A program made the position numbers and the translations under genes. From the IMG/VR virus record IMGVR_UViG_3300025834_000173: 64,000 bases of DNA. One strand, 5' to 3'. Below are positions 432 through 63,792 of the stretch, in pieces; the first letter of the stretch is position 1, and every line of letters starts with the position of its first letter. The notes under the pieces were generated by a model that saw nothing but the letters and a program-made list of their open reading frames with translations, was not told where the DNA came from and searched no databases. This DNA is from a virus.

Positions 432-1514
432 TTATGACTCTATACCTAAATATTTTATTTCTCCGTTTTCAACTACGTTTATATAATAAAAATTATTGCC
501 TATATATGAATAAGGAGTTCTTCCTTTTTTCCCCCCATAACCACCTAGCCCCACTACATTTTGTTTGTTTCCTTTATTAAATGGATATGAAGACGAATCG
601 TACCTGTCTTCAATTATGTTTTTACTTTTTTTCAATTTCAACACTATATTGTTTACAGCATCTTCTCTACTTATATTTCGTAAATCTAATTCTATTTTAT
701 CACTTGATATTTTGTACTCAGGATGTTTTCTAATTATTTTAAGTATTGTTTTATTTATATTGTATCTTAATTTAAAATCTTCTTCACTCTTATCTTCTAA
801 GAATCCTGAACTGTCAGTATAATTAAACATCTCCCATTTAGGATATATTGTTATAGTATCAGGTTTAATATTTTCAATCATTATTTTTATGTCGTTTGCA
901 GTATTTTTTAATGACGCTTTCACGTCTACTGTCTCACCTGCATATGCAGACTGTTCCGTAAATGTCAGTAAATCACAGTTTGTACTTATTCCATGTTCTC
1001 TACAGAAGTCAATTATACTTCTTAGTTTTTCTTGTTTAACAGGTATCCTGTTATTTTTAAATATTAAATCATTATTAAATGATTGAACACCCATTGATAT
1101 TTGATTAAACCCATATTCACTAAGTATCTCAAGTTTTTCTTTACTCAATATTGTTGGATTAGCTTCAAATTTCTTACTCTCTATCTTATCTATATTAGGT
1201 ATAAGGTCAAAAACTTTTCTCATTGTATGTGTATCCATCATTCCAGAAGTCCCTCCACCTAAATACAATGTATCAAATATCTTTAATCTTAGTATGTCAC
1301 TCTGCTGTTCGAAAAATTTAGGTAATATGTCATCAAAATATTCTTTGTATTCTTTTGAATTTACTCTAGATGCTATTTTACCTAAATTACAAAACTTACA
1401 TATTGAAATACAAAAAGGAACATCTATATATAAATTAAATGTATTTTTCTTATTGAATAATTCTTTCCATTTAGCTTTAATCTCTTCTATACTGTATTCT
1501 TTATATTCTAACAT
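432..1514 (-). CDS. HemN-like radical SAM protein (possible class C methyltransferase)
   Basis: DVPFCISICKFC motif, YLGGGT, FEANP, ISMGVQSF: the HemN/coproporphyrinogen oxidase-like pattern. The start overlaps the upstream stop. Confidence 0.8.
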   Translation of the reverse strand: MLEYKEYSIEEIKAKWKELFNKKNTFNLYIDVPFCISICKFCNLGKIASRVNSKEYKEYFDDILPKFFEQQSDILRLKIFDTLYLGGGTSGMMDTHTMRKVFDLIPNIDKIESKKFEANPTILSKEKLEILSEYGFNQISMGVQSFNNDLIFKNNRIPVKQEKLRSIIDFCREHGISTNCDLLTFTEQSAYAGETVDVKASLKNTANDIKIMIENIKPDTITIYPKWEMFNYTDSSGFLEDKSEEDFKLRYNINKTILKIIRKHPEYKISSDKIELDLRNISREDAVNNIVLKLKKSKNIIEDRYDSSSYPFNKGNKQNVVGLGGYGGKKGRTPYSYIGNNFYYINVVENGEIKYLGIES

Positions 1515-2551
1515 CCATTTAACCTCTCTATGAAAGATTTAACTGCTAAGGCTTTTTCAGTCGTAAATGATAAACACCCACCATTACATTGTTTATTTGT
1601 ACTTAATTTACAATCATTACACAAGAAGTTTATCTGCATGTTATAACATATTCCATCAATTCCATGTTTAAAATATTTATAAATTTCCATCATATCTTTG
1701 TAATCAAACATATTTACTTTTGCTAATCTTGACATTGCAAAACATCTTATAACTTGTAAATCTACTGTAACATCTAATACAGGTTCACAACCATATCTTT
1801 TATGATAATCAGTTCCACCTTTAGTTTCGTAAAATGCTAATAAACCTTCAAATCTTTCCTTATATTGTTCCATTACACAAACAGGTATTTTGGAGCAATC
1901 AAATGTTATCCTATCTACTAAATCTTTTGCTGTCTCCAATAATGTTAGTAATGACTCTGCCATTTCATTGTAATATACCAAATTTAATTTCTTATCTGAA
2001 TTTATGTTAGGAGCTACTGTAGATACTCTTAACACCCTTTCCTTTTTATTCTCTATATTCTGAAATATGTCTACTATATGAGACCAATCAGTATTTGTAT
2101 CAAATATATTAACGCCTATAGTCATCTTATCAGGACAAAGTTTATTAAATTTTATTATCTGCTCTCTAGCACTTTCAAATCTAACTTTTCCTAACTCTTC
2201 TCCAAATTGTCTCATCAACTCTTTTGGAGAATTGTAATTTAATAATATACCAACTTTTGAAGATGCTAGTACGTTCAGATGTTCCATAAGGCTACTTCCG
2301 TTCGTAAATACTGTTACATATTTTATGCCTTCTCTTTTTATTAAGTATTCTACTATTTTGTCGAATTCAGGATGTAATGTTGGTTCTCCACCTATCAACC
2401 CTACTCCATCGCTAGTTTGTAACAGAAAGTCTGTTACCCTTTTAAAATCTTCTAAACTCATTAATTTGTTGTTTCCATGTTCTGTAAATTCCTCTGCAAA
2501 ACAGTATTTACATTTATAATTACATGATTCTAATATTGCTACGTTTGACAT
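1508..2551 (-). CDS. Radical SAM enzyme with C-terminal SPASM/twitch-type Cys cluster
   Basis: CNYKCKYC, IGGEPTLHP, FTNG; C-terminal CEP...RCF...CNDC...CNGGC. Confidence 0.85.
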   Translation of the reverse strand: MSNVAILESCNYKCKYCFAEEFTEHGNNKLMSLEDFKRVTDFLLQTSDGVGLIGGEPTLHPEFDKIVEYLIKREGIKYVTVFTNGSSLMEHLNVLASSKVGILLNYNSPKELMRQFGEELGKVRFESAREQIIKFNKLCPDKMTIGVNIFDTNTDWSHIVDIFQNIENKKERVLRVSTVAPNINSDKKLNLVYYNEMAESLLTLLETAKDLVDRITFDCSKIPVCVMEQYKERFEGLLAFYETKGGTDYHKRYGCEPVLDVTVDLQVIRCFAMSRLAKVNMFDYKDMMEIYKYFKHGIDGICYNMQINFLCNDCKLSTNKQCNGGCLSFTTEKALAVKSFIERLNGC

Positions 2552-4651
2552 TTATTGTCCCCTTCCCAGTTCTCTCACTATATCATCTATACTATCTTTT
2601 GATTTATCTGTTATTTCATTTAATTGTTGTACTGACATTCTATGAAATTCTACGTATCTCTGCATTGAACTATAATTTTTATATGCTACTATTATATTAT
2701 ATTTAATGTGTAACATAAACTTTTTATATATAAACCAGTTCAGTTTTAAAATCTCATAGCATGTTATTTTACTATCTTCATCTTCGCACACATAATCTAT
2801 ATGATTTTCTATGTCATATATGTATTTAGGTTTATTTGATTCTATTATATAGTCATAAGTATAATTATCAATTCTTTTTTGTAATCCTCTGTATTCAAAT
2901 CTACTCTGTGCTTTTTTGATATATTTAGTGTAAACTTTATCTTTGTTATCTAATTGTTCTTTAGTTTTAAAAGTTTTATCTATCTTATTTAGCTCTCTTT
3001 TACTAAGTATTTTAAATATGTCATCTTCAAATGTATTTATAAACTGAGTATAACCGTTTTCTCCTTGTCTACCTGCTCTACCCCTTACTTGTAAATCAAT
3101 TCTTTTACTCATAAAATGTCCTAAGCACAGTACTATTAAACCCTTTTCTTTATTTATACTTTTCAGTATTATATCTGTTCCTCTACCCATTAATTGAGTT
3201 GATATTGTTACTGTTCCAGGTACTCCAACTTTGTCTATGATTTTGTCTTCTATTTCGTATGGTGTACTGTTATTAAATATAACTGCCTTCACATCATTAA
3301 AATATACAAAATTGTATAGCTTCTCGGCGTCAAAGTCAGACTGGCACACTATCAGTATTGGATTCTTGTTATAATTATTTTTTATTGTTTTAAGAGTGTA
3401 TTCGAAAGACTGTTCTTTTGTTTCAAACATCATGTCACTGAAATCTTCTCTTTGTGACTGTTTATTTTCAGGTATTATAGATATTCCTTTTCCAAATAAT
3501 AAATTCAATTCTTGTTCTATATCTTTTACTGTTCCACTAACGCCTACAAGATTGTTATACATATTGAAAAATATTTGATATGTCATATTATTCTCTAAAC
3601 GCATTTCTAATTGTTCGAATAAATTTTCCTTAACATGTATAGCTGCTTGTATATCTGATTCATATGATGAATTGTATAACAATCTACCGTTATTAATGTT
3701 TATCAATACTATATGACCATCTTTTACTGTGTATTCTATATCTTTTTTGTAAAATAACAATACTTTTAAATAACTTATTATATTTAAGTATATTTCAGAT
3801 ATCTCAAAAGTATCTGTTTTATTATGCAAAAATATGTTATGTATTAATTCAAATGTTTCATCAGATATACATAGAAATTTTGAACTTTCTTCATAGTAAT
3901 AATCATAAACTATTTCTTTAGATTTTAAGTCCCACATCATTTTTTCCATGTTTGTTAATTCATCTTTACTCATTTTATACCCTTGCATATCTTCTACGAA
4001 ACCTTTTACAGTTAGTAAGTTACTGTAATCTACTTCCCCTATAACTTGTCCACTTACTGAAAAACTTGATGTTGCGTTATCCACTAATACATAGTCTATC
4101 TCGTCTATAATTACATTTTCAAATGTAAATTTAAAATCTTTGTTATACTCATATTCTAAATAATCAAATATCAAGGATTCGCATGAGCTATACACAACAT
4201 CATTGTCATAAATATTGTTTATGTCTTTTCTACTGTCTCTATCATTAAAAACAGATTTAATATTTAAAAACTCAAATATATCCTTTGAGTTTTCATAATC
4301 TCTTTTTGAAAGATAGTCGTTAGTTGTTGCTATGTGTATTTTTTCATTTCTTCCTTTTATTAATACATAACACAGTATAACTAATGTCTTGCCTTCTCCT
4401 GTTTTCATTTCAGTTACATAACCTTTATTCAATGAAACTACAGCCCTTAACTGAGATTTAAATAATTTTATACCCTTAAACTTATGTATAGTAAAATATA
4501 CACCCGCTATAGATTCACATATATCTTTAGAATTAAACATGTCTATTATTTCAGTGTCACTTATATTTTTAGTATTAAATTTATCAACATTTCTTAATAT
4601 TTTATTTACAGTTTTATCTAGCTTTTTAATTCTAAACGTATTCTCTATCAC
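2552..4651 (-). CDS. SecA-like ATPase (short accessory paralogue)
   Basis: SecA signature motifs MKTGEGKT, TTNDYLSKRD, IIDEIDYVLVD, STQLMGRGTDI, QVRGRAGRQG. 699 aa with a shortened C-terminus and no Cys-rich tail; GTG start with GGGAGG RBS. Confidence 0.85.
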   Translation of the reverse strand: MIENTFRIKKLDKTVNKILRNVDKFNTKNISDTEIIDMFNSKDICESIAGVYFTIHKFKGIKLFKSQLRAVVSLNKGYVTEMKTGEGKTLVILCYVLIKGRNEKIHIATTNDYLSKRDYENSKDIFEFLNIKSVFNDRDSRKDINNIYDNDVVYSSCESLIFDYLEYEYNKDFKFTFENVIIDEIDYVLVDNATSSFSVSGQVIGEVDYSNLLTVKGFVEDMQGYKMSKDELTNMEKMMWDLKSKEIVYDYYYEESSKFLCISDETFELIHNIFLHNKTDTFEISEIYLNIISYLKVLLFYKKDIEYTVKDGHIVLININNGRLLYNSSYESDIQAAIHVKENLFEQLEMRLENNMTYQIFFNMYNNLVGVSGTVKDIEQELNLLFGKGISIIPENKQSQREDFSDMMFETKEQSFEYTLKTIKNNYNKNPILIVCQSDFDAEKLYNFVYFNDVKAVIFNNSTPYEIEDKIIDKVGVPGTVTISTQLMGRGTDIILKSINKEKGLIVLCLGHFMSKRIDLQVRGRAGRQGENGYTQFINTFEDDIFKILSKRELNKIDKTFKTKEQLDNKDKVYTKYIKKAQSRFEYRGLQKRIDNYTYDYIIESNKPKYIYDIENHIDYVCEDEDSKITCYEILKLNWFIYKKFMLHIKYNIIVAYKNYSSMQRYVEFHRMSVQQLNEITDKSKDSIDDIVRELGRGQ

Positions 4652-6421: not shown

Positions 6422-6447
6422 TTATTCATATCTCCTTTATTTTTAAC

Positions 6448-15703: not shown

Positions 15704-16408
15704 TTAACTAAATTTCAATCTGAATTCAAACACATTTTGTCTGACTCCATCTATTGTTTTTTCTTCTATTGCTGTAATATTTGCTGATTTAACGTAAGGT
15801 AACACACTCACTTCGTAAAACAACTCTGCTATAGCACTATTATCTTGACTGTATCCTCTAATTATAATGTCTTGCAATGCCCCATCTGATACCACACCTG
15901 TGTAAAATCCCTCAGGCAATAATTTAGGGTCTACTGTTCCAATTATATTACCGTTAGCATCCTCTATCTCTGCATTTGAGTTAACCACTATTTTTTTATT
16001 AGCATCATTAGGGTCGGGTATAGTTGTTTTCTGCAACTCTGTTTTTGTATCTGGTGTTTTTAACATGTCTTCTGTATCTAATGATACTAATATAACTTCA
16101 TCAGGAAGCACATTAACTATTAAGTTCGTAAACTCGTAAAATGGAAATCTTATTTCTTCTATATTTTGAAGTACTGTTATTTGAGTTTGTTCCTCAATTT
16201 TCATACCATCTATAGATGATTTTAATTGTTTCACTTCTGCGTTATTTTCTTGTATTCCGCTTAACTCAAAGTATGACTTAGCTGTTTTTGCTCCCTGTAT
16301 TCCTATTAGTGCTACTAAAAATACTGAAATAACTATTAGCCCCTTAATTAAATTAGCAATAAGAAATTTATTCTTATCCTCTAATGGTATTAAATTTATT
16401 TTCCTCAT
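15704..16408 (-). CDS. pilN: PilN-like assembly protein
   Basis: The true start is probably MRKINLIP (ATG at 16408, RBS GGGGG). INLIP + TM + coiled coil + IIIRGYS pattern. Confidence 0.75.
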   Translation of the reverse strand: MRKINLIPLEDKNKFLIANLIKGLIVISVFLVALIGIQGAKTAKSYFELSGIQENNAEVKQLKSSIDGMKIEEQTQITVLQNIEEIRFPFYEFTNLIVNVLPDEVILVSLDTEDMLKTPDTKTELQKTTIPDPNDANKKIVVNSNAEIEDANGNIIGTVDPKLLPEGFYTGVVSDGALQDIIIRGYSQDNSAIAELFYEVSVLPYVKSANITAIEEKTIDGVRQNVFEFRLKFS

Positions 16409-17529: not shown

Positions 17530-19200
17530 TTACATATATTTACGTATTTCGTCAAAAGTTGTTGTTCCCTCTATTGCTTTTCTTTTAGCATCAACTTGTA
17601 TTGTTGCCATTCCGTGTGTCGTCGCATGTTTTTTAATTCCTATAGATGATTCACCCTTATAAATAAGGTCTTTTATTTCATCTGTTATCATAAGTAATTC
17701 AGATATTGTAGTTCTACCTTTATACCCTACATTCTTACATTCAGGGCAACCTACTGCTTCATAAACTTCTCTTTCATTAGGAAAAAGATTAAATTCATTT
17801 ACTAACGGGTCACCATCTGTCAAATTTACTTTTCTCTTACAGTGTGGGCATAATTTTCTAACAAGTCTCTGACTTAGAACAGCTAATACTGATTCAGCAA
17901 CCATGAAAGGTCTTACCCCCATATCCACAAGTCTTGTTATTGAACTTGCTGCATCATTAGCATGTACTGTTGCAAATACTAAGTGACCTGTGTTAGCTGC
18001 TTGTACTGCCATATCTGCTGTCTCTCTATCACGAATTTCTCCTATCATTATAATGTCAGGGTCTTGTCTCAACATTGCTCTTAATATATCCATAAACTTC
18101 AATCCTGCTTTTTCATTTACCTGTGACTGAGCTATATTATTCATATAATACTCGACAGGGTTTTCAGCAGTTGTTATATTTTTTGTACCATCGTCTATAT
18201 GATATAGTGATGAATACAATGTTGTTGATTTACCAGAACCTGTAGGTCCAGTTATTAAAATTATACCTTGGCTCTTATTAATCAATTTCTTATATGTTTC
18301 CAATTCCTTATGAGGAAAACCTAATACGTCTAAGTTTACCATATTCTCAGAACTGTCCATAAGACGTGCAACTATTTTTTCTCCCTGTACTGTAGGTAAT
18401 GTGCTGACACGCATGTCTAACTTCTTACCCTTTACAGAAGCAAATATTTTACCATCTCCAGGAATTAACCTGTTTGATATATCCATTTTAGCCATAGTCT
18501 TAATTCTTGAAACTATATTTTCAGATATACTTTTAGGTAATGTCTGTGCTGTTCTTAAATGTCCGTCTACTCTATATTTAACTATCACATCATCTTTTCT
18601 AGGTAATATGTGAACGTCAGATGCCCCTTCATTAAATGCGTCAAAGAATATTTGGTTTACTGTTCCAACAAGTCCAGGTGCATTTGTTTCTGATATCTCA
18701 AACGCCTCTTCGCTTTTCTCTTCTTCTCTGTTAATCTTAGCTAATTCTTTATTTCTTAATTCAGGTTCAATATATTTCTTTAATAGACCAGTCATATCAC
18801 TTGTAGTTATGAATGCATATTCAACCATTTTACCATAAGTATTTCTTATCAAGTCATCAGCGTCCATATTTGGTTCATCGTCTATTAACATATAAGCTGT
18901 TATGTCATCTTCTTTTGTAGGTATAAATCTATACTTTATCATATCAGCTAATTTAGCTTTTTTAAGCATTTCGATATTTACTTCTATTTCATCACTTTGA
19001 AGGAATGAATAATTTTTCTGAGCTGCCAATGCTTCCATTTTTTGAAATTCGTTTATAGCATCCATTCCTATGAGTATATCAGCTAATTTAGTTTCTTGTT
19101 TTATCTTTTGCATATCTATAGCTTTCAGAAGCGTATCGTCATTTATGAAACCTTTAGATATAAGTATTTCCCCAATTTTCTTTTTAGTATTTATAGACAT
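17530..19200 (-). CDS. pilB: Type IV pilus extension ATPase
   Basis: GASDVHI, GPTGSGKSTT, LRQDPDIIMIGEIRD, ANTGHLVFATVH, tetracysteine CPHC/CPEC. Confidence 0.95.
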   Translation of the reverse strand: MSINTKKKIGEILISKGFINDDTLLKAIDMQKIKQETKLADILIGMDAINEFQKMEALAAQKNYSFLQSDEIEVNIEMLKKAKLADMIKYRFIPTKEDDITAYMLIDDEPNMDADDLIRNTYGKMVEYAFITTSDMTGLLKKYIEPELRNKELAKINREEEKSEEAFEISETNAPGLVGTVNQIFFDAFNEGASDVHILPRKDDVIVKYRVDGHLRTAQTLPKSISENIVSRIKTMAKMDISNRLIPGDGKIFASVKGKKLDMRVSTLPTVQGEKIVARLMDSSENMVNLDVLGFPHKELETYKKLINKSQGIILITGPTGSGKSTTLYSSLYHIDDGTKNITTAENPVEYYMNNIAQSQVNEKAGLKFMDILRAMLRQDPDIIMIGEIRDRETADMAVQAANTGHLVFATVHANDAASSITRLVDMGVRPFMVAESVLAVLSQRLVRKLCPHCKRKVNLTDGDPLVNEFNLFPNEREVYEAVGCPECKNVGYKGRTTISELLMITDEIKDLIYKGESSIGIKKHATTHGMATIQVDAKRKAIEGTTTFDEIRKYM

Positions 19201-24922: not shown

Positions 24923-26509
24923 TTAGTTTTCCAACCAAGGTTGCTCAGCATTACTCATAAATAATTCGTATGCTTTTCTACCTTCAGGCAAGCCCGTCTT
25001 TATAATATTTCCAAGTAATATTATATTTGTATAATGTGATAATCTATTTTCAGGAGGATTAAACTTACTGTCTGCATAAGCATGCACTATTTTATGACAG
25101 TTTGAACATACTGTTAATAAATTGTTATCATCATCATTTCCATGATTATGTACTGGAACAACATGATGTGTTTCAAATACTGATGTTAATTCTGGTTGAT
25201 AAAATCCTAAACCACATGATTGACATGTATGTCCATCTCTTGCTCTTATTCTATCTACAACATGTCTTGGCAACGGTTGTCTGTCTTTAGTAGTTTGCTC
25301 GTTAGCTGGCTCAAGTTGTAATGAGTTGTAATCATATGTTCCATCAGGATTTGTCTCTATATGTTTTTCTGCTTGCTCCATCTTTTCTTTATCCAATTTA
25401 GCTAGCTCCTTTTCTATTTTCTTAAACCCCTCTTTTATTGACTTCTTACCTAATATAACTTCCCCTAAAACTCCGAACTCATCCATAGTCTGAATATATT
25501 TAGCTTTTAAATAATCTCCAGGTTCCATTCCTAAAATATTTTCTATTACTTCACTTTTAAGAATAGGCTGCTTTTTTTCTATATATGCACCAAAGTCCAT
25601 TAACTCTAAAAACTTGTATCTCTTTACTCCGTTACTTATTACTTCCACATATCTTATAATATCTTTCTTTCTTGTAGTGTCTATTATACAAGGAGCTTCT
25701 TCCATTCGTAAATTCGTCATAGCTATATATCTTCTAACTCCACTAGCTATTATGTATTTACCTTTGTAAGGAATAACATGTAAGGGTTCTATTAAACCCC
25801 ACTGTTGAATTGATTTTTCAAGTTCAATCATTTCTTCCTTATCATTTTTTCTTGTTCTTGGAGGTATGAAAATATCAGCAAGCTTCAATATCTCTATGCT
25901 TAATGTTCCATTTATTTGCAATTCAATAGGATTTCCTGTGGTATCAAATAATGTTTCAGTATCTCTTTCACTTTCTGAAAGACCTACGTTATTCATTTCC
26001 TTAATTACTTTTTCAGGTGTTACATCACCTATTTGTTTCTTTGCTTCTTCCTCGTCTTGCTTCATATCTGCTAGAAGTTTTTCTAAATCTTCTAAAGGCA
26101 TATTGTTTAAATCGTCTATTTCAGGTCCATCTTCTTCTTCATACTCTTCATCGTATTCCTCATTGTCAAAGTCTTTATCTAAAACTTCTTCTGATTCAGT
26201 ATGATTTTCTTCTACTACTTCTTCTACTTGTTGTACTTCAGTAGGTTTATTGAACTTTATCTTCCCAAAGTCCATATCTCCTAAATCTACTTCTTTGTCA
26301 TCATCTTCTTCTACTTGTTCTTTTTCATCTTCGTCGTAGAACTCATGTTCTATATCAGTTCTATCTTCGAAATATGTTACTATTTCCCCATTGTTGTCAA
26401 CCAAATTTCCGTCTTCATCTTCCAATAGTTTTGATTCGTCTACTGCCTCTTCAATCTCTATACCAAGAGCCTTAAGTTGCTCTATAGACATGCTAGAAAA
26501 TCTATTCAT
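24923..26509 (-). CDS. ParB/Srx-like domain fused to a C-terminal HNH nuclease, with acidic N-terminus
   Basis: GLIEPLHV...IASGVRRYIA (ParB GxxR box); RARDGHTCQSCG...HHVVP...NLLTVCSNCH (HNH); ~150 aa D/E-rich N-terminus. Confidence 0.8.
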   Translation of the reverse strand: MNRFSSMSIEQLKALGIEIEEAVDESKLLEDEDGNLVDNNGEIVTYFEDRTDIEHEFYDEDEKEQVEEDDDKEVDLGDMDFGKIKFNKPTEVQQVEEVVEENHTESEEVLDKDFDNEEYDEEYEEEDGPEIDDLNNMPLEDLEKLLADMKQDEEEAKKQIGDVTPEKVIKEMNNVGLSESERDTETLFDTTGNPIELQINGTLSIEILKLADIFIPPRTRKNDKEEMIELEKSIQQWGLIEPLHVIPYKGKYIIASGVRRYIAMTNLRMEEAPCIIDTTRKKDIIRYVEVISNGVKRYKFLELMDFGAYIEKKQPILKSEVIENILGMEPGDYLKAKYIQTMDEFGVLGEVILGKKSIKEGFKKIEKELAKLDKEKMEQAEKHIETNPDGTYDYNSLQLEPANEQTTKDRQPLPRHVVDRIRARDGHTCQSCGLGFYQPELTSVFETHHVVPVHNHGNDDDNNLLTVCSNCHKIVHAYADSKFNPPENRLSHYTNIILLGNIIKTGLPEGRKAYELFMSNAEQPWLEN

Positions 26510-26527: not shown

Positions 26528-27430
26528 TTAACTATTTTTTCTTGTTGCTATTGCTAGCATAAATCCCTCACCCAATTCAGATGGAGATATATTATGCAAG
26601 AACATTATCTGTCCTTTATATCTATGCTCTGGTATTAGAGATACAGCTAATACGCTATAGTTAGTCAATATATATTTAAAATTTGTTTCCAAATCCAATG
26701 TTGGGTCATAATCGAAAACCTGTACTTCCAATTTATTGAGCTTTCTTCCTTGCTTACTTCCTTCAATAGCTTCGTAAATTTCTTCTATATTTTTCAGAAT
26801 CACTATTTCTATGTTTATAGGTAAGTTCTTATCTAAACGCATTTCCAAAGGTCTCAATTTTTCACCTGTTTTAAACATTACTGCTATACCCATACCTAAT
26901 GAATCTATTATATCTTCAGGTAATGACACCAAATTAGGATAATACTCAAAAACATATTTTCTTACTTGTATTTTATCGTTTACACTCTGTTTCCAAGTAC
27001 TAGGGCTACTTAATCTTGATTTCCATTTTGTATTTTCTATTGGATATCCCTTAATTCCTAAATCACTGCACATATCCTCTATTGTATGTTTTATACTTAG
27101 CAGAACATCCACTGTATCAAAATTTTGACCTCCGAATACTCCTTCGTAAAATACCTTTTCTATTTTGAACCATTCAACCAGTTCTTCCAATTTATTTCTT
27201 AGTTTTTTTCTAAATTTTACTACTTCTGTTGTTTTCTTTTTCTCTATGTACACTGTTGTTATCAAACTTCTATTTGAATCAAATATACTACATCCAGTAT
27301 GTGTTGCTTGGTCTAAGAACATATAACATGGATATTTAATTAAATGTGTACTTAAATAGTTTTTTTCTTTTACTGATTTAGTATAGGATGCATCTTTGTT
27401 TATAGTGTAATATTTTTGTGTCACTTTCAT
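26528..27430 (-). CDS. RuvC-like (RNase H fold) Holliday junction resolvase/nuclease
   Basis: FLDQATHTGCSIF, VFYEG, WK, DIIDSLGMG: an acidic catalytic pattern. Confidence 0.65.
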   Translation of the reverse strand: MKVTQKYYTINKDASYTKSVKEKNYLSTHLIKYPCYMFLDQATHTGCSIFDSNRSLITTVYIEKKKTTEVVKFRKKLRNKLEELVEWFKIEKVFYEGVFGGQNFDTVDVLLSIKHTIEDMCSDLGIKGYPIENTKWKSRLSSPSTWKQSVNDKIQVRKYVFEYYPNLVSLPEDIIDSLGMGIAVMFKTGEKLRPLEMRLDKNLPINIEIVILKNIEEIYEAIEGSKQGRKLNKLEVQVFDYDPTLDLETNFKYILTNYSVLAVSLIPEHRYKGQIMFLHNISPSELGEGFMLAIATRKNS

Positions 27431-27437: not shown

Positions 27438-28103
27438 TCACATCCCTAACCCTTTTATTTCAGTAAGTATTTCTTCGTATTTTTCTCTTAAGTTGAAACT
27501 TAATACTTCTAAAGTATCTATCCTATGAGCAAACTCCACATACTTGTTTATATCTTTTTTTCTCATTTGTTTTAATCTCTTTTCAACGTCCATTTTAATT
27601 GTCTTCAAAGGCAATTCACCTTTTACACTAACTTTCTTTTGTGTCACTTCTTTATTTCCGTAATTACTAACTTTCTTCATTTCATTTTGTTTTTCTATCT
27701 TAGCAAACAATTTACTATTATCTTTCTTTATATTAGGAATTTTTACTTTAAATATATTAGCTAAATCTAATACTGATTGTATCAATGTATATTTAGGAAA
27801 ATCCCTCTTTTTATAGTTATAATGTAACTCAACTATTGTTCCAGTCCTACCACAACCGAAACAATGATATTTTTTAGTATTGTCGTAATATCTAAATGAA
27901 GGAGTTGTTTCATCATGTAATATACAACAAGTTAATGGTTTTTCCTCTAAATCTACTCTACTATCAACCATTATTCTGAAGTAATCAGGAATTTCTATTG
28001 TGTCTATTAACATCTGACGAGCTTCTTCAAATGCTTCCGAATTTATATTATTTTGGTCTAAATACTGCTCAAACGTTGCTCTCTTACTATCTGAACCCAT
28101 CAT
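27438..28103 (-). CDS. Stand-alone CHC2 zinc-finger (primase zinc-binding domain) protein
   Basis: CILHDETTPSF...YHCFGCG; no TOPRIM domain recognised. Confidence 0.82.
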   Translation of the reverse strand: MMGSDSKRATFEQYLDQNNINSEAFEEARQMLIDTIEIPDYFRIMVDSRVDLEEKPLTCCILHDETTPSFRYYDNTKKYHCFGCGRTGTIVELHYNYKKRDFPKYTLIQSVLDLANIFKVKIPNIKKDNSKLFAKIEKQNEMKKVSNYGNKEVTQKKVSVKGELPLKTIKMDVEKRLKQMRKKDINKYVEFAHRIDTLEVLSFNLREKYEEILTEIKGLGM

Positions 28104-28123: not shown

Positions 28124-29620
28124 TTATTCATCTTCATCAACCTCTAAATCAGCAAACTCACAAACACCCAACATTGCCAACACATTTCTTGGAGGAAAAC
28201 CTGCCGAGTTTCTTGACTTAGTGCAATATATTCTTGCCATGTCTTTTGCCTTTAAATCGTCATCTGTAAATATTGTTATTGCTGTATGTGCTGATTTCAT
28301 TACTGCTGTTGAATCAGCTGCTCCGACTATTGTTTCATTACTATTCTTCAGCAAACCTTTTATAGCTTCTTTTGTTAACTGATGAGGTAATAATATCAAT
28401 AACCCCTTACCTCTATATGATTGTGCCATCGTCTCAAGTTTAGGCATCAAGTTTGTCAATGTATCTGTAATATTTATATATTTTCTACTTTGAACTAATG
28501 AGGTATGGTCTATACATATCCAATCAAATTCAAAACCATCTCCATCTCTATTATCCCAAATGGCATCTAGAATTCCTTCTATTTCATCATCGTATAAAGG
28601 AGACGGAATTAATTTTAATTTTCCGTATTCCTCATTATGATACAAGTCATATGTTGCTGCTTGTACTGCATCTGCTCTATCAGATTCATATGTTTTACCG
28701 AATACTGCATCTGCATCTACGTCTAATATTCCGAACTTATTAGCTAAATGTTTAGCTATGAACAATGCTTCAGTTCTTTCTAGCTTGCTCTCTAGTGCAA
28801 AGTATAATCCACTGTGTCCATTTACAAGTGCGTTATAAGCTATATTAACGTTTAATCTTGTTTTACCTCCTCCAGGAGGTCCCAATGTTACAACAACTTC
28901 GTTTCGTAAAAATCCACCCAATCTTTCATCAATAAATTCCATACCAGTATAAGATATTTTTTCAAGTCTCATAGGGTCTTTCTGTCTTTCCAAGTAATCT
29001 GCATAACCTTCTTTTGAAATTGTTATAGTTGGTATCTTTTGTTCTTCAAATTCAGATGTTCTTAATATCTCAGCTGCTTTTTTATTATAATATTCATATG
29101 AATCTTTTGGTCCTTGCAAAAATGTTTTACCTATTTGCAACCCCTCAGTTGTTATTTTAAATGCCTTAGCATATAAATCTCTAAACTGTTCAGAGGCCCA
29201 TTCTTGTAAATATAAATATAAGTTATATTTAAATCTATTTGATTCAACTGTCATTTGCTGTAACTCTTCATATCTTGTACAACATAACTCTATAAATTCT
29301 TCCTTAACCATCTGTAAGTCATTTTCATCTGATGCAAAGTCAGTAACTATAACATTAGGTGATTTTAATAACTTCTCTATATTTGAAATCATTATCTGAT
29401 TAAAGTGCTTTGAATTAAGTATTACGTTAAATCTTTTTGCATCTTTTATTGCTTGGAATATTGCAAAGTATTCATTCGTAAATATGTTCTGAGATAATGA
29501 GCCGAATAATGAATTTATATTTCCCATCACTTCTTTTGCTGTTTCATTATCCAAATCGTCAGGTGCTATAATTGACGCAAATATCTCATTTTCTGTTATT
29601 ACTGTATTTTCTAAACCCAT
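28124..29620 (-). CDS. DnaB-like replicative helicase
   Basis: Probable start MGLENT (ATG at 29620, RBS GGAG). GMEFIDERLGGF, GPPGGGKT, FALE, CIDH, PHQL, KSRN motifs. Confidence 0.82.
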   Translation of the reverse strand: MGLENTVITENEIFASIIAPDDLDNETAKEVMGNINSLFGSLSQNIFTNEYFAIFQAIKDAKRFNVILNSKHFNQIMISNIEKLLKSPNVIVTDFASDENDLQMVKEEFIELCCTRYEELQQMTVESNRFKYNLYLYLQEWASEQFRDLYAKAFKITTEGLQIGKTFLQGPKDSYEYYNKKAAEILRTSEFEEQKIPTITISKEGYADYLERQKDPMRLEKISYTGMEFIDERLGGFLRNEVVVTLGPPGGGKTRLNVNIAYNALVNGHSGLYFALESKLERTEALFIAKHLANKFGILDVDADAVFGKTYESDRADAVQAATYDLYHNEEYGKLKLIPSPLYDDEIEGILDAIWDNRDGDGFEFDWICIDHTSLVQSRKYINITDTLTNLMPKLETMAQSYRGKGLLILLPHQLTKEAIKGLLKNSNETIVGAADSTAVMKSAHTAITIFTDDDLKAKDMARIYCTKSRNSAGFPPRNVLAMLGVCEFADLEVDEDE

Positions 29621-29624
29621 TATC

Positions 29625-30419
29625 TCAACTCCAGTTTTTCTTAGTATTAGTATTCTTCTCAGTCTTCTTGAATAAGAAAGGTGCTTCAACTACTCTTAAT
29701 CTATCATAGTCTACTCTACTTTCTCCGTAGTTTCCTTTTATTATGAATTCGGTTATATAAGGGTCGATTTTTTCTAAATAACTTAATCCACTTCTAGTAA
29801 CTACAAATGTAGGTAAACCGTTTCGTGCTCTTCTGTCTACTATAACTTTTATTCCTTGCATACTCACTTTTGAATCTGTATATCCTGTTGAATGCTTTAT
29901 AAAACATATATCTGCATTCTCTAATTTGTTTACTATGCCATCATTCTGTTCCCAATAATTATAAATCATTCCGTATATTTTTAAAGAATCTAAATATGGT
30001 GCTATTGTCTTTCCTATCTTTAAAGCCGATTCTAAACATGCGTAAACTAAGTGATTCTTACCCATATTTTGAGGTGAGCTTATAAATAAACTATAATTTG
30101 ATTTATTCCCTATTACCATCATACTATATAGTTTCTGCATAGTATTTAAGAAATTTATAACTTCAGGATTTTTCTTATACTCTGGAGGTAATAAGTTACT
30201 ATTCAAAACTAATTTCATGTCGTAAGTGGTATTTCTGTACTGTTCAGGAACATACTTGTCTATCTTTCCTTCAAATACTATTTCATCAATTAACTCAGGT
30301 AATTTGTTTCTTTTACATTCGCAATCAACTATTTTACCGTTTTTCTTAACTTTTCCGATATCTCTACAAATATCACATTTGTATTCTTTTTTATTTAGTC
30401 CGAAATCTTCTTGTCCCAC
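29625..30419 (-). CDS. DnaC/DnaI-like helicase loader (degenerate AAA+)
   Basis: N-terminal CDIC...CEC zinc motif, SPQNMGKNH Walker A-like, DRRARNGLPTFVVT; adjacent to the helicase. Confidence 0.6.
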   Translation of the reverse strand: MGQEDFGLNKKEYKCDICRDIGKVKKNGKIVDCECKRNKLPELIDEIVFEGKIDKYVPEQYRNTTYDMKLVLNSNLLPPEYKKNPEVINFLNTMQKLYSMMVIGNKSNYSLFISSPQNMGKNHLVYACLESALKIGKTIAPYLDSLKIYGMIYNYWEQNDGIVNKLENADICFIKHSTGYTDSKVSMQGIKVIVDRRARNGLPTFVVTRSGLSYLEKIDPYITEFIIKGNYGESRVDYDRLRVVEAPFLFKKTEKNTNTKKNWS

Positions 30420-32194: not shown

Positions 32195-35170
32195 TTACGC
32201 CATATAATAATCGTCTTCTTCAAGTATTTCTAAGTTAGCGAGTGCATCTTTTATTTCAGGTGCTGTATAGTATTTCTTCAATTCATCCTTTTTCACTTTG
32301 TTGCTGTGAGGTCCTTCCCCTATTTCTAACACAAATTGACTTATAGGTTTCTTTTTAGTTCCCTTAGGAGTTTCTACAAACACTTTGTTTATTTCATCTT
32401 CTATGCTTAATTCAGGTACTATAACCTTTTCTTTTACAGGTTCTTTTTTATCTTCTATCTTCTTAACAGGCTTACTTCCTCCAAATCCCATCATAGGAGA
32501 TACTTTACTACTTCCTGTTTCTTGACTTTTCTTTATGTCTTCTACTATAGCACGTCTTCTTTCATATCTTCCGTCTATAACATTAACACGTTCACCTGTT
32601 CCTCTTATTTCTAATCCTTGTTCTGGCTCTACATTTTCATTATTTTTAACTACGTTTCCTTTTCTTATACTTACTAGTATATCCTTTTCATTACTGTTTG
32701 TGTTTTGTTTAAATACTTGATTACTTCCGTTACTTACCACTTTATTATTATTCTTTTGTGGTACTGTATCACCGTCAATTTCACCTATTGCAGATATAAC
32801 TCTGTCTCCGTCTATATCTTTTTCAAAATATTCTTTATTCATTAAATCATTTAATACTTCTTCTCTTCTAGGTGCTCTGTTATCTGTGTATTTAAATGAT
32901 ACCATAGTTCGTAAAGCTTCTTCATCTGTAAGTCTTGATTGCCACTCAAATGCTAGCATTCTTGTTAAGTTCAATATCTGTCTATCGTCCTTACCCCCTA
33001 TACCTAATGCTTTAATTGATACAGGTTGTTTACCAGTTTCTTCTGATGCAAATAATGACATACCTATTTTGTTCGGAGGACTTATTGTTGAGTTATACAT
33101 TTCAACTTTTTCTAAGTCCCTAATATCAAGTCTAAATGTCCACCTAACACTACACTCTGATACAATTGCTCTCGGTAATTCATTATCTGTTGTTCTCTGT
33201 GCTATGACTACTAATCTTATTCCACAAGAACGACCTTGCTTTGCTATTTCAACTAAACTACTTATAAACTCTTCTCTAGGTTCTTTTTTCTTACTTGCTA
33301 ATTCCAATCCTGCAAGTGTTGCTGCCATTTCCTCTATTACAACAAATAACCAAGGTAATTTGTGTAATGCTTCAGCATCATCTTTTACTGACTTTCGTAA
33401 ATCTTGCCATTTAGATACTCCAACTCTATCCATTATGTTCTTACGACGTTCTAGTTCTATTTTAACTTCTTTTATAACATCTATATAATGTTGTTCGTCA
33501 CTGTGTAATCCTATAACATGAGGTAATCTCGCCAATGTTTTGTACTGAACATCTTTCTTACGGTCCAGTATAATAAAGTTTACATCTCCAGGATGTGATT
33601 GTATTATTATATTAAATATTAAGTTATAAACAGCCCATGACTTACCAGAACCCGATGAACCTGCTATCATTATATTTGTATTATTACCAACATCAAATAT
33701 AAATGGAACTTCTTCGTTCTGTAGACCAACCATTATTGGTAAATCATACTTCTCTCTTAAATATTCATCAAAAGTTCCTTTATCTTTTTCTGTATCATAG
33801 TATCTTATAACGTCTCCCCAAGTTATTATTGTATTATCAACTTTCATTATTTTTAATATAATAGAGTCTGAATAAAATGATGCACTTATACTAACATCAT
33901 TGTCTGCTTCATGTGCTTTAAATATGTTCATTATAGTTATCATGTTTGACATTATGTCATTCTCTTTAATATTTATACCAGGTCCAGTGATTGAAAATTC
34001 TATTCTATAATATATCTGACTTTCTTTTACGGATTTAACGTTCATTTTATAATCTCCCGTAAATGTTAATTGAGGTTTTATTTTTCTCATTCCCTCCCAA
34101 GTCAAATATGATATATTTTTATAAAGTATGCTATCTTTTGAAATTGATTTCAAATCTGAGAAGTCAGGATTATTACAGAATACATATTCTCTCATTGAAT
34201 ATATTATGTCTTCTCTATCTGTAGAATCTTCATCTCTCAAACTAGATGAATTTTTATATGCTTTCAACAGTATCTTATTAAATTCTTTTTCAGATGAATC
34301 TGCATTTATTATCTTTTGAGGTATTGCTAATTTTTCAGAGTATTCTTTTCTACGTTTTTCTTCAGATAATTCTTTATCATCTACTACGTATTCTTCATCC
34401 TCACACTCTTCTTCTTCATCGTCATAGTATTCTCCCTCTTCTTCACATTCCTCTTCAGGAACTTCTTCATCTTCATCTATTTCTATTTTGTCTATTTCAC
34501 CAAGTAATTCGTCAGGGTCTGGCTCTTCTACAGTATTTTTAATTATATAAAATTTACTTACCCCTGCCATTATTATAGAAACTAAGAATAATGCTGACAT
34601 AGATGCTATGAATTTTAAATCATAAATTAACCAACCTATTAATGATACTAAAGAAGTTATTGCTGACACCAAAAACAGTTTATTAAAATAAACTGTTAAA
34701 TCAGGTTTGTTATCTGATGAACGTCTTTTAATAGATTCTGCTGTAAACCATACTAAATAATAAGGTGCCATTACTAAATTTTTAAAAAAGTCTTCTGTTT
34801 CAAACTTAGGAATTATTGGTTGAAGTCTAGCATCTTTCTTTATCCACCACCCATCTTCAAACCCATATTTTTCGTAGAATTCTCTTTTCCTTGCTTCTGA
34901 TTCTTCTCTTTCTTCAGGTTCTTCTGTTGTAGCTATATTCATTCCTTCTGTACTTGCCACATTACTTTCTTTCATATTCGAGGTATCAAGTACGTTATAT
35001 CCACTTGTGTCAGCTCCACCCATTTCAGCAAGCATTGCTTCCAGTTCTTCAACGTCTAAATCTTGTAAATCTTCTATACCGTTAATATCAGACACATCAG
35101 TCTTATTTAATACTTTTTCTAGAAACTGTTTTCTAATAGGTTTTGGTAATTCTCTAGTTAAATCTATCAC
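32195..35170 (-). CDS. Membrane-anchored FtsK/SpoIIIE-type ATPase, probable coupling protein (TcpA-like)
   Basis: Two to three TM helices, acidic linker, IAGSSGSGKS, VVIEE, GRSCGIRLVVIAQR. Confidence 0.75.
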   Translation of the reverse strand: MIDLTRELPKPIRKQFLEKVLNKTDVSDINGIEDLQDLDVEELEAMLAEMGGADTSGYNVLDTSNMKESNVASTEGMNIATTEEPEEREESEARKREFYEKYGFEDGWWIKKDARLQPIIPKFETEDFFKNLVMAPYYLVWFTAESIKRRSSDNKPDLTVYFNKLFLVSAITSLVSLIGWLIYDLKFIASMSALFLVSIIMAGVSKFYIIKNTVEEPDPDELLGEIDKIEIDEDEEVPEEECEEEGEYYDDEEEECEDEEYVVDDKELSEEKRRKEYSEKLAIPQKIINADSSEKEFNKILLKAYKNSSSLRDEDSTDREDIIYSMREYVFCNNPDFSDLKSISKDSILYKNISYLTWEGMRKIKPQLTFTGDYKMNVKSVKESQIYYRIEFSITGPGINIKENDIMSNMITIMNIFKAHEADNDVSISASFYSDSIILKIMKVDNTIITWGDVIRYYDTEKDKGTFDEYLREKYDLPIMVGLQNEEVPFIFDVGNNTNIMIAGSSGSGKSWAVYNLIFNIIIQSHPGDVNFIILDRKKDVQYKTLARLPHVIGLHSDEQHYIDVIKEVKIELERRKNIMDRVGVSKWQDLRKSVKDDAEALHKLPWLFVVIEEMAATLAGLELASKKKEPREEFISSLVEIAKQGRSCGIRLVVIAQRTTDNELPRAIVSECSVRWTFRLDIRDLEKVEMYNSTISPPNKIGMSLFASEETGKQPVSIKALGIGGKDDRQILNLTRMLAFEWQSRLTDEEALRTMVSFKYTDNRAPRREEVLNDLMNKEYFEKDIDGDRVISAIGEIDGDTVPQKNNNKVVSNGSNQVFKQNTNSNEKDILVSIRKGNVVKNNENVEPEQGLEIRGTGERVNVIDGRYERRRAIVEDIKKSQETGSSKVSPMMGFGGSKPVKKIEDKKEPVKEKVIVPELSIEDEINKVFVETPKGTKKKPISQFVLEIGEGPHSNKVKKDELKKYYTAPEIKDALANLEILEEDDYYMA

Positions 35171-40993: not shown

Positions 40994-43108
40994 TTACTCT
41001 TCATCTTCTTGGTCTTTTCTTGTTACATACAGAGGTGAATCCCATAAATCTACAGGAATTTCAAACTTAACTATGTTATACTCATTCTTGTAATTTAATA
41101 AGAAACAATGTTTAAATGAGTCATCTGTATTTATTAATCTCATTTCATCTGCACATACTTGAAGTTGTGGAACACATTTAATAATCTTTTCTGTTATTTC
41201 ATTAGGATATCTTCCTACTATATACCCCTTAATATTTGACTTAATAGCTTTTGTATGAGCTGACAATTCTGATGTATCATCTTCTGCTATGTCTAATATC
41301 TGCAATGGTGAGTTTGTAATTAAGAATACTATCATACCTCTCTTACGTCCACCAGATACTATATCATTGATTATTTTTCCAGAAGCTTCGTTATTTAAGT
41401 AACGTTGTAACTCTTCCCAAGCAACATATGTTAATTTGTTTAATACTGTTTTATTATAATTACAAATCAATATTGTTATATATCCAACGAATAACTGTCT
41501 TAATGCTAATGAACGAGCATCTATAGTATTTTCTGTCTTACCTCTCATACCGAATGAGAATACTATATTTTTATGACCTAACAAGTCATTTATAGATATT
41601 CTGTTCTTAAATATTCCTGAGTAAATGTTACCATCAAAGTATAGTCTTAATTTAATTATGAATTCTTCTATGTTATCTCTTATGTGTTCATACTCTTCTT
41701 CATCTTTCATTATTGTAAGTTCTCTGTATAAATCTTCATATGAACAACCCTTAGAATTTTTCCAAGTTTCAGGGTCATCTGTTACCCCTCTACTAGCGTA
41801 AACTCGTAAAATCATATCATTAAACAGTGATACTTCGAAATGATTCATACCATTTTTATAATCAGTTAACACATCAAATACTAACTTTGTTGTACTTATA
41901 GCTTCTGATTTTAATGCTTCGTCTATTAATTCATTTCCTGTTAAATCACCTATTTCAGTAGTATCAAAATAATATGAACTACCGTCACTCATACTAACAA
42001 ACTGAGCATCATGTTCTTGTCCTATTGCTGTGTATTCATCACCTTCATAGTCAACTATTATTGTACATAAATTTTCTATTTCAAGATGTGTTAATAATGT
42101 TTTACTTGCGCCGGACTTTCCTTCACCTGTTGATGCTGTTAATAAGAATACTACAGCATCTGAACCAGACTTCACATCATATGTTATAGGTAAATTTGTT
42201 ATAACATCTGTTCCCATGTATAGACCATTTGTATCTCCTGATAATCCTGCTTGTGTATCTGCGAACCGACTTATTATTCTATCTGATAATATCATACCTT
42301 TACTTCTTTTCTTTAACATATTGTTTTCGTTTCTTCCTGCTACAGAAAATGCTTTGTAGTACTCGTTTGTCTGAATAAATATTGTTCCGGTTTTTACCCC
42401 ATTATTTTCCATATAATTTTTGAATATTCCTTCAGCTTTCTGTAAATCTAATATGTTACTTGCAACAAGTTCAACTGTTAAAAAAAACCTACAGAAGTTA
42501 TCTCTGTCCTTCTCTGTGTCATTTACCCATTGCCAAGACTTAATCATACGTTTGTTTCTATCAAAATATTCTTCACCTTTGTTTCCGTTAAATAACTCTT
42601 CTAAGGAGTCTCTATTAGATTCTTCTTCTAAATATGCATCAGTTCTTTGTTTCCATATGTTTATTCTTCTTTTTACTGCATATGAGTTTCTATCAAAGTA
42701 ATAAGGCTCTGCACGTTCTATTACTGTTATTTCGCATAAACCCTTTAATTCAAACTTTAAATCTTTTACAAAGTCTTGGCTAACTCCTCCAGGAAATTCG
42801 TCTATAAAGAAAACTTTTTTAACTTTGTCTTTCGTAAATATCTTATTAGTTGAGTAGTAAAAATATCCTTCAGGAATTACTACTTCTGGTTTAGGATTGT
42901 TTAAGTTACCTTTACTAATAAGAGCAAACAACAGCTCTATATAGAACTCAAATATACCTAACTTTTTATTATTTCTTTTATGATTATCTCTTATCTCATC
43001 TATCTCATTTATTTCTTTTGATTTCTTCTTATTTTTTCTTATTATATCTATTTCGCTATCTAATTTCTCTTTCTTAGGTTCTTTGTCTTTCTTTTTTAAT
43101 AAACCCAT
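40994..43108 (-). CDS. VirB4/TcpF-like conjugative ATPase
   Basis: TASTGEGKS, IIVDYEGDEY, WEELQRY, GRKRG; lies in the T4SS-like cluster. Confidence 0.78.
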   Translation of the reverse strand: MGLLKKKDKEPKKEKLDSEIDIIRKNKKKSKEINEIDEIRDNHKRNNKKLGIFEFYIELLFALISKGNLNNPKPEVVIPEGYFYYSTNKIFTKDKVKKVFFIDEFPGGVSQDFVKDLKFELKGLCEITVIERAEPYYFDRNSYAVKRRINIWKQRTDAYLEEESNRDSLEELFNGNKGEEYFDRNKRMIKSWQWVNDTEKDRDNFCRFFLTVELVASNILDLQKAEGIFKNYMENNGVKTGTIFIQTNEYYKAFSVAGRNENNMLKKRSKGMILSDRIISRFADTQAGLSGDTNGLYMGTDVITNLPITYDVKSGSDAVVFLLTASTGEGKSGASKTLLTHLEIENLCTIIVDYEGDEYTAIGQEHDAQFVSMSDGSSYYFDTTEIGDLTGNELIDEALKSEAISTTKLVFDVLTDYKNGMNHFEVSLFNDMILRVYASRGVTDDPETWKNSKGCSYEDLYRELTIMKDEEEYEHIRDNIEEFIIKLRLYFDGNIYSGIFKNRISINDLLGHKNIVFSFGMRGKTENTIDARSLALRQLFVGYITILICNYNKTVLNKLTYVAWEELQRYLNNEASGKIINDIVSGGRKRGMIVFLITNSPLQILDIAEDDTSELSAHTKAIKSNIKGYIVGRYPNEITEKIIKCVPQLQVCADEMRLINTDDSFKHCFLLNYKNEYNIVKFEIPVDLWDSPLYVTRKDQEDEE

Positions 43109-56934: not shown

Positions 56935-56952
56935 AGTTCAACCACCTTATCA

Positions 56953-59661: not shown

Positions 59662-59724
59662 TCAAATCTCAATCTATATAGTTACTAGTATATCCTTTTA
59701 ATAATAGATTTATTATAGTTTAAA
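59662..59724 (-). promoter_or_regulatory. Conserved ~63-bp upstream element, copy C
   Basis: Same register as copies A and B: TCAAAT, ATAGTTACTAGTAT, TTAAT, AG, GTTTAAA. Confidence 0.7.
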
Positions 59725-59735
59725 CACAAAATAAA

Positions 59736-63612: not shown

Positions 63613-63675
63613 CAATGTTTAAATCTCTATGCTTACTAGTATACTCAAATTTTCAAAGTTTAACATCTGTTTAAT
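63613..63675 (-). promoter_or_regulatory. Conserved upstream element, copy D (more diverged)
   Basis: TTACTAGTATA followed, in the same register as copies A-C, by AGTTTAA and GTTTAA. Confidence 0.5.
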
Positions 63676-63792
63676 AACTTTCAATTCGTAAATCTTATGC
63701 ACTTATTGTAGACTGTTTTTAATTAGTTATTCATACTTTTTAAACTTTTTTCATTTATTTTTAACTAACTCTTTAACTCTTATCTACATTTT

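Follow-up and report, generated by a model that had tools for sequence, protein, structure and literature searches.

The hexamer TTTACG, which reads CGTAAA on the opposite strand, is a real, selected and DNA-strand-specific signal of a giant genetic element found in glacier metagenomes; we regard this as virtually certain. We analyzed the word in a stretch of 64,000 nucleotides (the window) of the IMG/VR virus record IMGVR_UViG_3300025834_000173, which was placed by exact-protein look-ups at positions 5832-69831 of a 103,682-bp metagenomic contig (the contig). With a probability of about 0.35, TTTACG marks the start points of primers for the second DNA strand, their choice being directed by a zinc finger that the element itself encodes.

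An exact count of CGTAAA in the window gave 70 copies on the plus strand and four on the minus strand, where the original prediction had estimated about 68 and about 4 and had listed the same four inverse positions. The coding-strand form of the word is TTTACG, and the copies are located as follows:

679..63692, plus strand: copies of CGTAAA (n = 70; coding-strand extended consensus a-TTTACG-R-a; mean spacing 913 bp)
17539..17544, minus strand, also 34026, 60043 and 61242: copies of CGTAAA in the inverse orientation, four in total

Two one-mismatch controls, CGTAAG and CGTAAT, occur in the window 5 and 10 times, in agreement with the earlier estimates (about 5, and 10 or fewer). In the whole contig, there are 121 copies of CGTAAA on the plus strand and 10 copies of the inverse word.

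The base composition of the window is strongly asymmetric (T 42%, A 28%, C 19%, G 10.5%; GC 29.5%), and all real genes, covering 93% of it, lie on the minus strand; hence the choice of the null model matters. Dinucleotide-preserving shuffles with both strands pooled yielded 19.1 +/- 3.9 copies (maximum 28) vs. 74 observed. Strand-specific Markov models of orders 0 to 3 predict 12.0, 8.5, 11.6 and 16.4 copies of CGTAAA on the plus strand, and from 27 to 9 copies of the reverse word, of which four are observed. CGTAAA ranks first among the 4096 hexamers of the window (z 13.2), and the second hexamer (z 6.9) overlaps it.

A further null model was a shuffle of synonymous codons within each gene (1000 shuffles), which preserves each protein and the per-gene codon usage. 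Coding DNA of the window contains 62 copies vs. 11.8 +/- 3.0 in these shuffles (maximum 21 in 1000; z = 16.7), and the excess is seen in all three frames (25, 22 and 15 copies observed, 2.9, 7.4 and 1.5 expected), in each of which the word had been noted from the sequence alone. Thus, codon use and the amino-acid sequence cannot explain the count, since protein-preserving shuffles fall far short of it and all frames are enriched. The original prediction had held codon use to be insufficient and had named codon-preserving shuffles as the test that could refute it; they miss the observed count by 17 standard deviations, and CGTAAA is the top hexamer under every null model used. The inverse word, in turn, is mildly depleted in coding DNA, both in the window (4 copies vs. 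10.6 +/- 3 expected) and in the contig (8 vs. 14.3).

The same holds for the contig, where a scan of all 4096 hexamers against protein-preserving shuffles put TTTACG first (100 copies vs. 19.4 +/- 4.1, z 19.5), the next unrelated hexamer having z below 9. Thirty-eight of 83 Phe-Thr dipeptides encoded by the contig are spelled TTT-ACG, with 3.8 expected, ACG constituting only 6% of threonine codons. In non-ORF DNA (ORF, open reading frame) of the contig, there are 18 copies vs. 3-7 expected, and the inverse word is at expectation; the copies at positions 12862, 35205, 43178 and 58997 of the window, given earlier as intergenic examples, are all outside called genes.

Two other words were noted in the course of these counts. 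GATTTA (coding strand; TAAATC on the plus strand) shows a weaker polar excess across the window (171 vs. 118, z 6.6, 44 antisense copies) and is also the top word, with an about 2-fold excess, in two relatives with about 50% protein identity (L019 and L021, see below); this could be either a codon-pair effect or a shared older signal. AGACCC (coding strand; GGGTCT on the plus strand, positions 18059 and 22141 of the window) is over-represented as well (15 vs. 4). At least two of its copies are within an identical stretch of about 18 nt common to the genes of PilB and of a VirB11-like ATPase, so that a conserved peptide motif, and not a signal in the DNA, accounts for a part of this excess.

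TTTACG has 18 one-mismatch variants, of which none is enriched (z from -3.2 to +2.8), and so all six positions of the word are specific. On its 3' side, the word is followed by a purine in 103 of 120 cases and then by A in 77 of 120, while on the 5' side there is a weak preference for A. The mean distance between sites is 913 bp in the window and 863 bp in the contig. The density is equal inside and outside ORFs, with 17% of the sites falling in the 16% of sequence that is non-ORF, and along the genes of the contig the sites are distributed evenly. The spacing is more regular than random (coefficient of variation 0.81 vs. 0.99, P = 0.01), and gaps shorter than 200 bp are rare (8 vs. 25 expected, P < 2e-4), that is, the sites repel each other. 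Two tandem doublets were found, each consisting of two copies 8 bp apart in an identical 16-nt string:

16127..16142, plus strand: tandem doublet in the pilM/N region
41797..41812, plus strand: second tandem doublet, in the gene of a 704-aa protein

The two genes are unrelated to each other, and the second doublet is not kept in the sister lineage described below. On either strand, 66-nt windows around the sites have the same folding energy as those around control sites with one mismatch (P = 0.30 and 0.28), and a structured single-strand initiation signal of the ssi/sso type was rejected because the sites have no hairpin context beyond that of the controls.

The word follows the DNA strand, not the transcript. 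On the contig, 92% of the copies have the same orientation, with three to eight copies per 5 kb throughout, and neither the polarity nor the base skew flips within the 103.7 kb covered, the contig being not closed. The sole opposite-strand genes of the contig, a 73-aa gene and a gene of a ParM/ALP-like actin, form a block at contig positions 93348-94637 (L017:9046-10335, minus strand of that locus), which is flanked by non-coding stretches of 300-800 bp and is plausibly a partition or origin region. The three copies of the word in this block are all oriented as in the rest of the replicon, none of them along the sense strand of the block, which gives a likelihood ratio of about 1800 in favor of the DNA strand over the transcript.

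The base skew behaves in the same way. At four-fold degenerate sites, the sense strand of the bulk of the genes has a GC skew of +0.53 and an AT skew of +0.25, whereas on the sense strand of the ParM block the respective values are -0.29 and -0.41 (resampling standard deviations 0.24 and 0.09); non-ORF DNA has a skew of the same sign as the bulk genes. Since the skew of the block is inverted on its own sense strand, the asymmetry of neutral sites belongs to the DNA strand, and such strand-tied skew implies a one-directional DNA transaction over all 104 kb, which points to unidirectional or rolling-circle replication, or to single-strand transfer. TTTACG is located on the strand that is G-rich by the four-fold-site skew. 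From the skew and the gene orientation we infer that this strand carries the leading-strand sequence and would hence be the lagging-strand template or the displaced strand. The spacing of about 1 kb given in the original prediction stands, whereas its assignment of the strand does not: provided that replication and transcription proceed in the same direction, as suggested by the skew, the template of the lagging strand is the coding (minus) strand, on which the word reads TTTACG, and not the plus strand with CGTAAA.

These observations leave very little room for the explanation that the word is a by-product of codon or dipeptide use or of strand-asymmetric mutation, or else a signal acting at the level of the transcript or the promoter. 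The extreme base skew and the location of genes on one strand do inflate the counts of many words; however, protein-preserving, codon-order and Markov null models fail by 13-20 standard deviations, one-mismatch neighbors share none of the enrichment, the sites repel each other, and genes on the opposite strand keep the orientation dictated by the DNA strand. Within 45 nt of the sites there is no information content past position +8, hence no -10-like partner; this, together with the independence of the orientation from the gene direction, rules out the -35 element of a sigma-70 promoter. A comparable unidirectional replicon, the 216-kb co-directional plasmid of Bacillus amyloliquefaciens, which has FtsK-like and LigA genes, contains no word with z above about 6; GGGGTA occurs on it in the ratio 26:1, yet without a z comparable to 19. 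A giant co-directional architecture does not, therefore, generally give rise to such a word.

Relatives of the element were identified using its DnaB-like helicase as the query. Homologs with 86% and with 45-51% identity were found, on contigs with the same gene order. The sister lineage is represented by two loci from other samples, L024 (82% nucleotide identity, 3.5 kb) and L035 (80.5%, 18.8 kb). In the hexamer scan of L035, TTTACG again ranks first (18 vs. 3.7, z 8.3), with a polarity of 20:3 and a density of about 1 per kb; in L024 the polarity is 4:1. Eight sites are shared by the main element and L035, 12 are present in the main element only and 10 in the sister only, and of the four sites compared with L024 none is shared in either direction. 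Hence, about 60% of site positions have turned over between the main element and L035. The conservation of the sites (0.40) is not greater than that of arbitrary hexamer windows (0.33), although it is greater than that of other CpG-containing words (0.20), and by chance at most 4.2 gains would be expected in the sister, compared with the 10 found (P about 0.01). Since the top rank is kept while positions turn over, and gains exceed chance, selection acts on the density and orientation, individual sites being weakly selected, as is likewise the case for Chi or for FtsK-orienting polar sequences (KOPS). The near-identical variants of the element (at least 99.9% identity) have no power for a test of site conservation.

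The same numbers argue against another explanation, namely that the element evades a restriction enzyme of Type III or Type ISP which cuts only between head-to-head sites, so that orientation alone would be selected. The near-uniform orientation (121:10) agrees with it, and the EcoP15I sites of phage T7 are known to be all in one orientation. The evasion predicts either no enrichment or avoidance, whereas TTTACG shows a 5-fold enrichment that extends to all frames and to non-coding DNA, and its sites are still being gained while others disappear, which makes this explanation highly improbable.

Beyond the sister, the signal disappears: in L019/L021, L026 and L027 (about 50% protein identity) and in L023 (26% helicase identity) TTTACG is near its expected counts. 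Among the lineages compared, it is thus confined to one lineage and its sister, as far as sequence comparison shows. Each distant lineage is represented by a single sample of 13-21 kb, L027 being a 20-kb contig with a higher GC content from Logan ERR3486052. L027 has polar candidate words of its own, namely (A)TAGAAA(A) (ATAGAAAA; 24 copies vs. 5.0, p 9e-10, 0 antisense) and GCTTACG followed by a purine (8 vs. 0.94, p 7e-6, 0 antisense). The latter shares TTACGR with the TTTACG word, a likeness noticed post hoc. L019 has only a weak AGATTTA (25 vs. 10); TAGACG, apparently polar in this locus (23:2), was discarded, being explained by codon and dipeptide use. In the original prediction, the word had been proposed to be an element-specific directional signal. 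That it is a signal of the DNA level, strand-polarized and lineage-specific has been borne out; among the Chi-like, KOPS-like and priming roles named there, all of which agree with the statistics, priming is our best guess.

Candidate readers of the word are encoded on the element in and next to its replication module, and the neighbors named earlier (the DnaG-type CHC2 finger, the RuvC-like fold, the SNF2 helicase and the FtsK-like motor) proved to be real:

24923..26509, minus strand: fusion of a ParB N-terminal domain with an HNH nuclease, considered as a nicking enzyme in one of the rival explanations
26528..27430, minus strand: 300-aa protein with a RuvC-like fold in its N-terminal half (TM 0.72-0.78 vs. 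RuvC structures)
27438..28103, minus strand: stand-alone 221-aa CHC2 zinc-binding protein of the DnaG type (Pfam Zn_ribbon_DnaG, E 3e-12)
28124..29689, minus strand: DnaB-like replicative helicase, directly upstream of the zinc-finger gene
30449..32083, minus strand: SNF2-family helicase of the replication module
32195..35170, minus strand: 991-aa FtsK/SpoIIIE-family motor, a candidate coupling protein or translocase

The 221-aa CHC2 protein is a candidate reader of TTTACG on a single-stranded template. Its domain profile matches the DnaG zinc-binding domains 1d0q and 2au3 (G. stearothermophilus and Aquifex), and in every lineage its gene directly follows that of the DnaB-like helicase, with 31-40% identity between lineages. 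We suggest that copying or transfer of the element proceeds one way and that the G-rich strand, which carries the word, would be the template of the lagging strand or else the single strand that is displaced or transferred; there, the word would mark the start points of second-strand primers. The stand-alone zinc-binding domain would read TTTACG and act in trans on a catalytic partner, which may be the DnaG of the host or an unrecognized enzyme of the element; the d(TTA) inside the word would be the initiation trinucleotide, with the adjoining CGR-a as additional context for the finger.

Several properties of known primases agree with this scheme. The zinc-binding domain sets the template (trinucleotide) specificity of a primase and can act in trans on the catalytic domain of another one, and DnaG primases of Firmicutes initiate at d(TTA) and d(CTA) (PMC2978363). 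In phage T7, the flanking context is read via the zinc-binding domain of the primase, and Okazaki fragments are 1-6 kb long (PMC12839067). A primase site is expected to hold an initiation trinucleotide with a central pyrimidine and to be on the lagging-strand template; TTTACG includes d(TTA) and d(ACG), and judging by the skew and the gene orientation alone, its strand would be that template. The density of 1 per 863 bp and the spacing of the sites are on the scale of Okazaki fragments. We favor priming because the finger and the helicase form a conserved module, the spacing is of kilobase scale and repulsive, the core of the word is d(TTA), and there is a hint of related words in L027, whose finger is homologous. 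A broader version of this idea, which we put forward tentatively, is a private priming code, in which the stand-alone finger of each lineage would redirect the start points of primers, perhaps in trans on the primase of the host, and would be paired with its own 6-8-letter word, written at intervals of about one kilobase along the discontinuously copied strand and co-evolving with the finger; possible examples are TTTACG-R in the main lineage and its sister and the candidates GCTTACG-R and ATAGAAAA in L027.

A number of observations weigh against priming. The gene adjoining the zinc finger encodes a RuvC-like and not a TOPRIM domain; the 300-aa protein had been considered as the missing TOPRIM primase domain and was ruled out by its fold. 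Pfam and PHROGs revealed no catalytic domain of the TOPRIM or archaeo-eukaryotic primase (AEP) type anywhere on the 104 kb, unannotated large proteins included, which weakens the case. To our knowledge, DnaG-type sites are trinucleotides abundant by chance, and a strict hexamer has no precedent. Being common in AT-rich words, d(TTA) is weak evidence. A Chi-like or a translocase-guiding word would be expected to show the polarity, over-representation, turnover and even spacing just as well, and the mild depletion of the inverse word is not predicted by priming. Finally, the direction of replication is deduced from the skew only, the replicon being not closed.

Similar statistics are classic for Chi. 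A helicase-nuclease of the host, of the RecBCD/AddAB type, may recognize TTTACG on the 3'-ending strand and stop degrading there, and the element, saturated with oriented copies, would thereby protect its linear or rolling-circle intermediates and recruit host recombination. We consider this somewhat less likely than priming. TTTACG is the top over-represented oligomer, 92% polarized on the G-rich strand and turning over at a constant density, and Chi-saturated mobile elements do exist: the ratio of orientations is 20:3 at 1 site per 1.86 kb in LLS and 32:0 in MD8, while P1 has 1 site per 1.9 kb (PMC12315714). Also in its favor, neither a single-strand annealing protein (SSAP) nor a RecA recombinase was recognized on the element, and the loss of the word in distant lineages could reflect different hosts. 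On the other hand, the sites of Chi-rich phages cluster near the entry end (PMC12315714), whereas those of TTTACG are uniform and mutually repelling, with a density of 1 per 0.86 kb, twice that of Chi-rich phages. Chi sequences described so far are rich in G and bear no relation to TTTACG (PMC3384302). The L027 word sharing TTACGR hints, weakly and post hoc, at a homologous reader encoded by the elements themselves.

A reader encoded by the element is also assumed if TTTACG guides a translocase, as KOPS or SpoIIIE recognition sequences (SRS) do. In this case, one of the motors of the element that act on double- or single-stranded DNA, such as the 991-aa FtsK-like protein, a second FtsK/HerA-like ATPase or the SNF2 helicase, would take its direction of loading or movement from the word while the element segregates or is transferred by conjugation. 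With 92%, TTTACG is at least as polar as KOPS (0.79-0.91), and known guide words evolve together with their motors and vary from one related taxon to another (PMC3384302); this fits the lineage specificity. All lineages encode an FtsK-family motor, and a mild depletion of inverse copies, as observed, is expected if wrong-way sites are harmful. We nevertheless consider guidance unlikely. The C-terminal 331 aa of the motor have no Pfam match at E <= 0.1 and hence no recognizable gamma-type domain, a negative result at the sequence level only; the known guide words are 7-8-mers with densities from 1 per 2 kb to 1 per 20 kb (PMC3384302), while TTTACG is a hexamer occurring once per 0.86 kb; and the 104 kb contain neither a convergence point nor a flip.

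An exact asymmetric hexamer with all positions specific would also suit a target of strand-specific nicking or DNA modification, and the element encodes two HNH proteins, one of them the ParB-HNH fusion, which would be the candidate enzymes. Such an enzyme would leave breaks or marks in one strand; site-specific nicks in one strand occur in T5-like and some Pseudomonas phages. Here, about 120 nicks per copy of the element would be extreme, nothing ties the HNH proteins to TTTACG, and no DNA methyltransferase or other modification enzyme was recognized on the 104 kb; such a role is rather doubtful.

Judged from its gene content, the carrier of the word is a plasmid-like conjugative element of giant size (at least 104 kb), nearly all of whose genes point the same way. 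It encodes a type IV pilus set (pilins, PilC, PilM/N and PilB), parts resembling type IV secretion (a VirB11-like ATPase, FtsK/HerA-like ATPases, SLT and M23 hydrolases) and partition-type genes (ParA-like ATPases and two ParM-like actins). The replication module consists of the SNF2 helicase, a possible loader, the DnaB-like helicase, the stand-alone CHC2 zinc finger, the RuvC-like protein, ParB-HNH and LigA; further genes are those of DnaX, ThyX, a PHP protein, a flap endonuclease and a YcaO/radical-SAM/SecA-like operon. No tRNAs were found, and no capsid- or terminase-like genes turned up in any annotation. There was no DNA match to phages and no exact match among viral contigs.

Near-identical copies (at least 99.9%) are present in several independent assemblies, and the sequencing runs containing the element are glacier metagenomes from four studies. 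An apparent divergence of 5.7% between the window and an ENA contig proved to be an indel-shift artefact. The termini of the contig do not overlap, several assemblies break upstream of a Fic gene, and extension gained only 594 nt. As to the host, the Atlas look-alikes found for LigA and PilB come mostly from Bacillota, a lead only, and the best plasmid matches of the FtsK-like motor are giant Bacillus plasmids (27-31% identity). A scan of GTDB genomes with the helicase alignment and with LigA gave no match.

Several other features of the element were noted. LigA (window 22817-24802) is a full-length 661-aa NAD-dependent ligase with OB, zinc-finger, HhH and BRCT domains; at the same position, a relative with 50% identity has a 301-aa ligase consisting of the adenylation domain only (L019:14563-15468). 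A 799-aa protein encoded near the ParM block (L017:12228-14627; contig about 89056-91455) has a full-length match to phrog_5156 (E 2e-91), a phage family of unknown function, and no Pfam or PDB sequence match; it could be an unrecognized replication enzyme. A 569-aa protein encoded outside the window (L017:5476-7185) contains two repeats of the RNA polymerase alpha C-terminal domain and a weak match to sigma-70 region 4/helix-turn-helix, and may be a transcription factor of the element that mimics or recruits parts of RNA polymerase. Finally, an intergenic element of about 45-90 nt is repeated upstream of several genes, with 75-89% identity between copies:

6441-6515, 56947-57036 and 59646-59727 (window): copies of the intergenic repeat
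83284-83326 and 95373-95443 (contig): further copies of the same repeat

In chromosome repair and segregation, a central part is played by polar oligomers under selection, for example Chi, KOPS and replichore-skewed octamers; nearly all such oligomers are chromosomal and read by the host. TTTACG is a known kind of signal with a new sequence, which resembles no signal known so far, in an undescribed family of giant elements, with exceptional statistics and visible turnover. The signal is unusually clean, with z about 20, a polarity of 92% and nearly half of Phe-Thr dipeptides spelling the word. If the element's own zinc finger is the reader, this would be the first replicon that tunes its sequence to a private primase specificity, and it would offer a direct handle on how the site choice of a primase shapes Okazaki spacing. 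If the reader is a nuclease or motor of the host, TTTACG would reveal which Chi or guide sequence an uncultured bacterium of glaciers uses, and would be a tag linking the plasmid family to its host. Either way, TTTACG may serve as a simple computational marker of strand identity and of the direction of replication or transfer in this family of elements.

Among known systems, Chi-saturated elements (coliphage LLS, P1 and Pseudomonas phage MD8; PMC12315714) resemble the present one in that a short asymmetric word is the top over-represented oligomer; they differ in the word itself, TTTACG being unrelated to known Chi sequences, and in its distribution, which is even here and clustered at one end in Chi-rich phages. 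KOPS/SRS, including the heptamer GAAGAAG of L. lactis (PMC3384302), are similar in polarity, which is above 90% here, in the variability of the word between lineages and in the presence of an encoded FtsK-family motor, and differ in that TTTACG is a hexamer found once per 0.86 kb, with no gamma domain detected and no dif-like convergence in the 104 kb. Primase sites, such as d(TTA) and d(CTA) of Firmicute DnaG (PMC2978363) and 5'-(G/T)(G/T)GTC-3' with its flanking context, recognized by T7 gp4 (PMC12839067), are comparable in that the element has a gene for a DnaG-type zinc-binding domain next to that of a DnaB-like helicase, d(TTA) is part of the word, the inferred location is the lagging-strand template and the spacing is of the Okazaki scale; the differences are that TTTACG comprises six strict letters and a purine instead of three letters, the finger stands alone, and TOPRIM was not found. 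We know of no genome-wide selected enrichment of primase sites established for model systems. Hendrickson and Lawrence, in 2006, reportedly described architecture-imparting sequences, skewed oligomers of bacterial replichores, which share with TTTACG the replicon-wide skew and the selection on orientation; those are chromosomal octamers that flip at ori and ter, whereas TTTACG keeps a single polarity throughout a mobile element.

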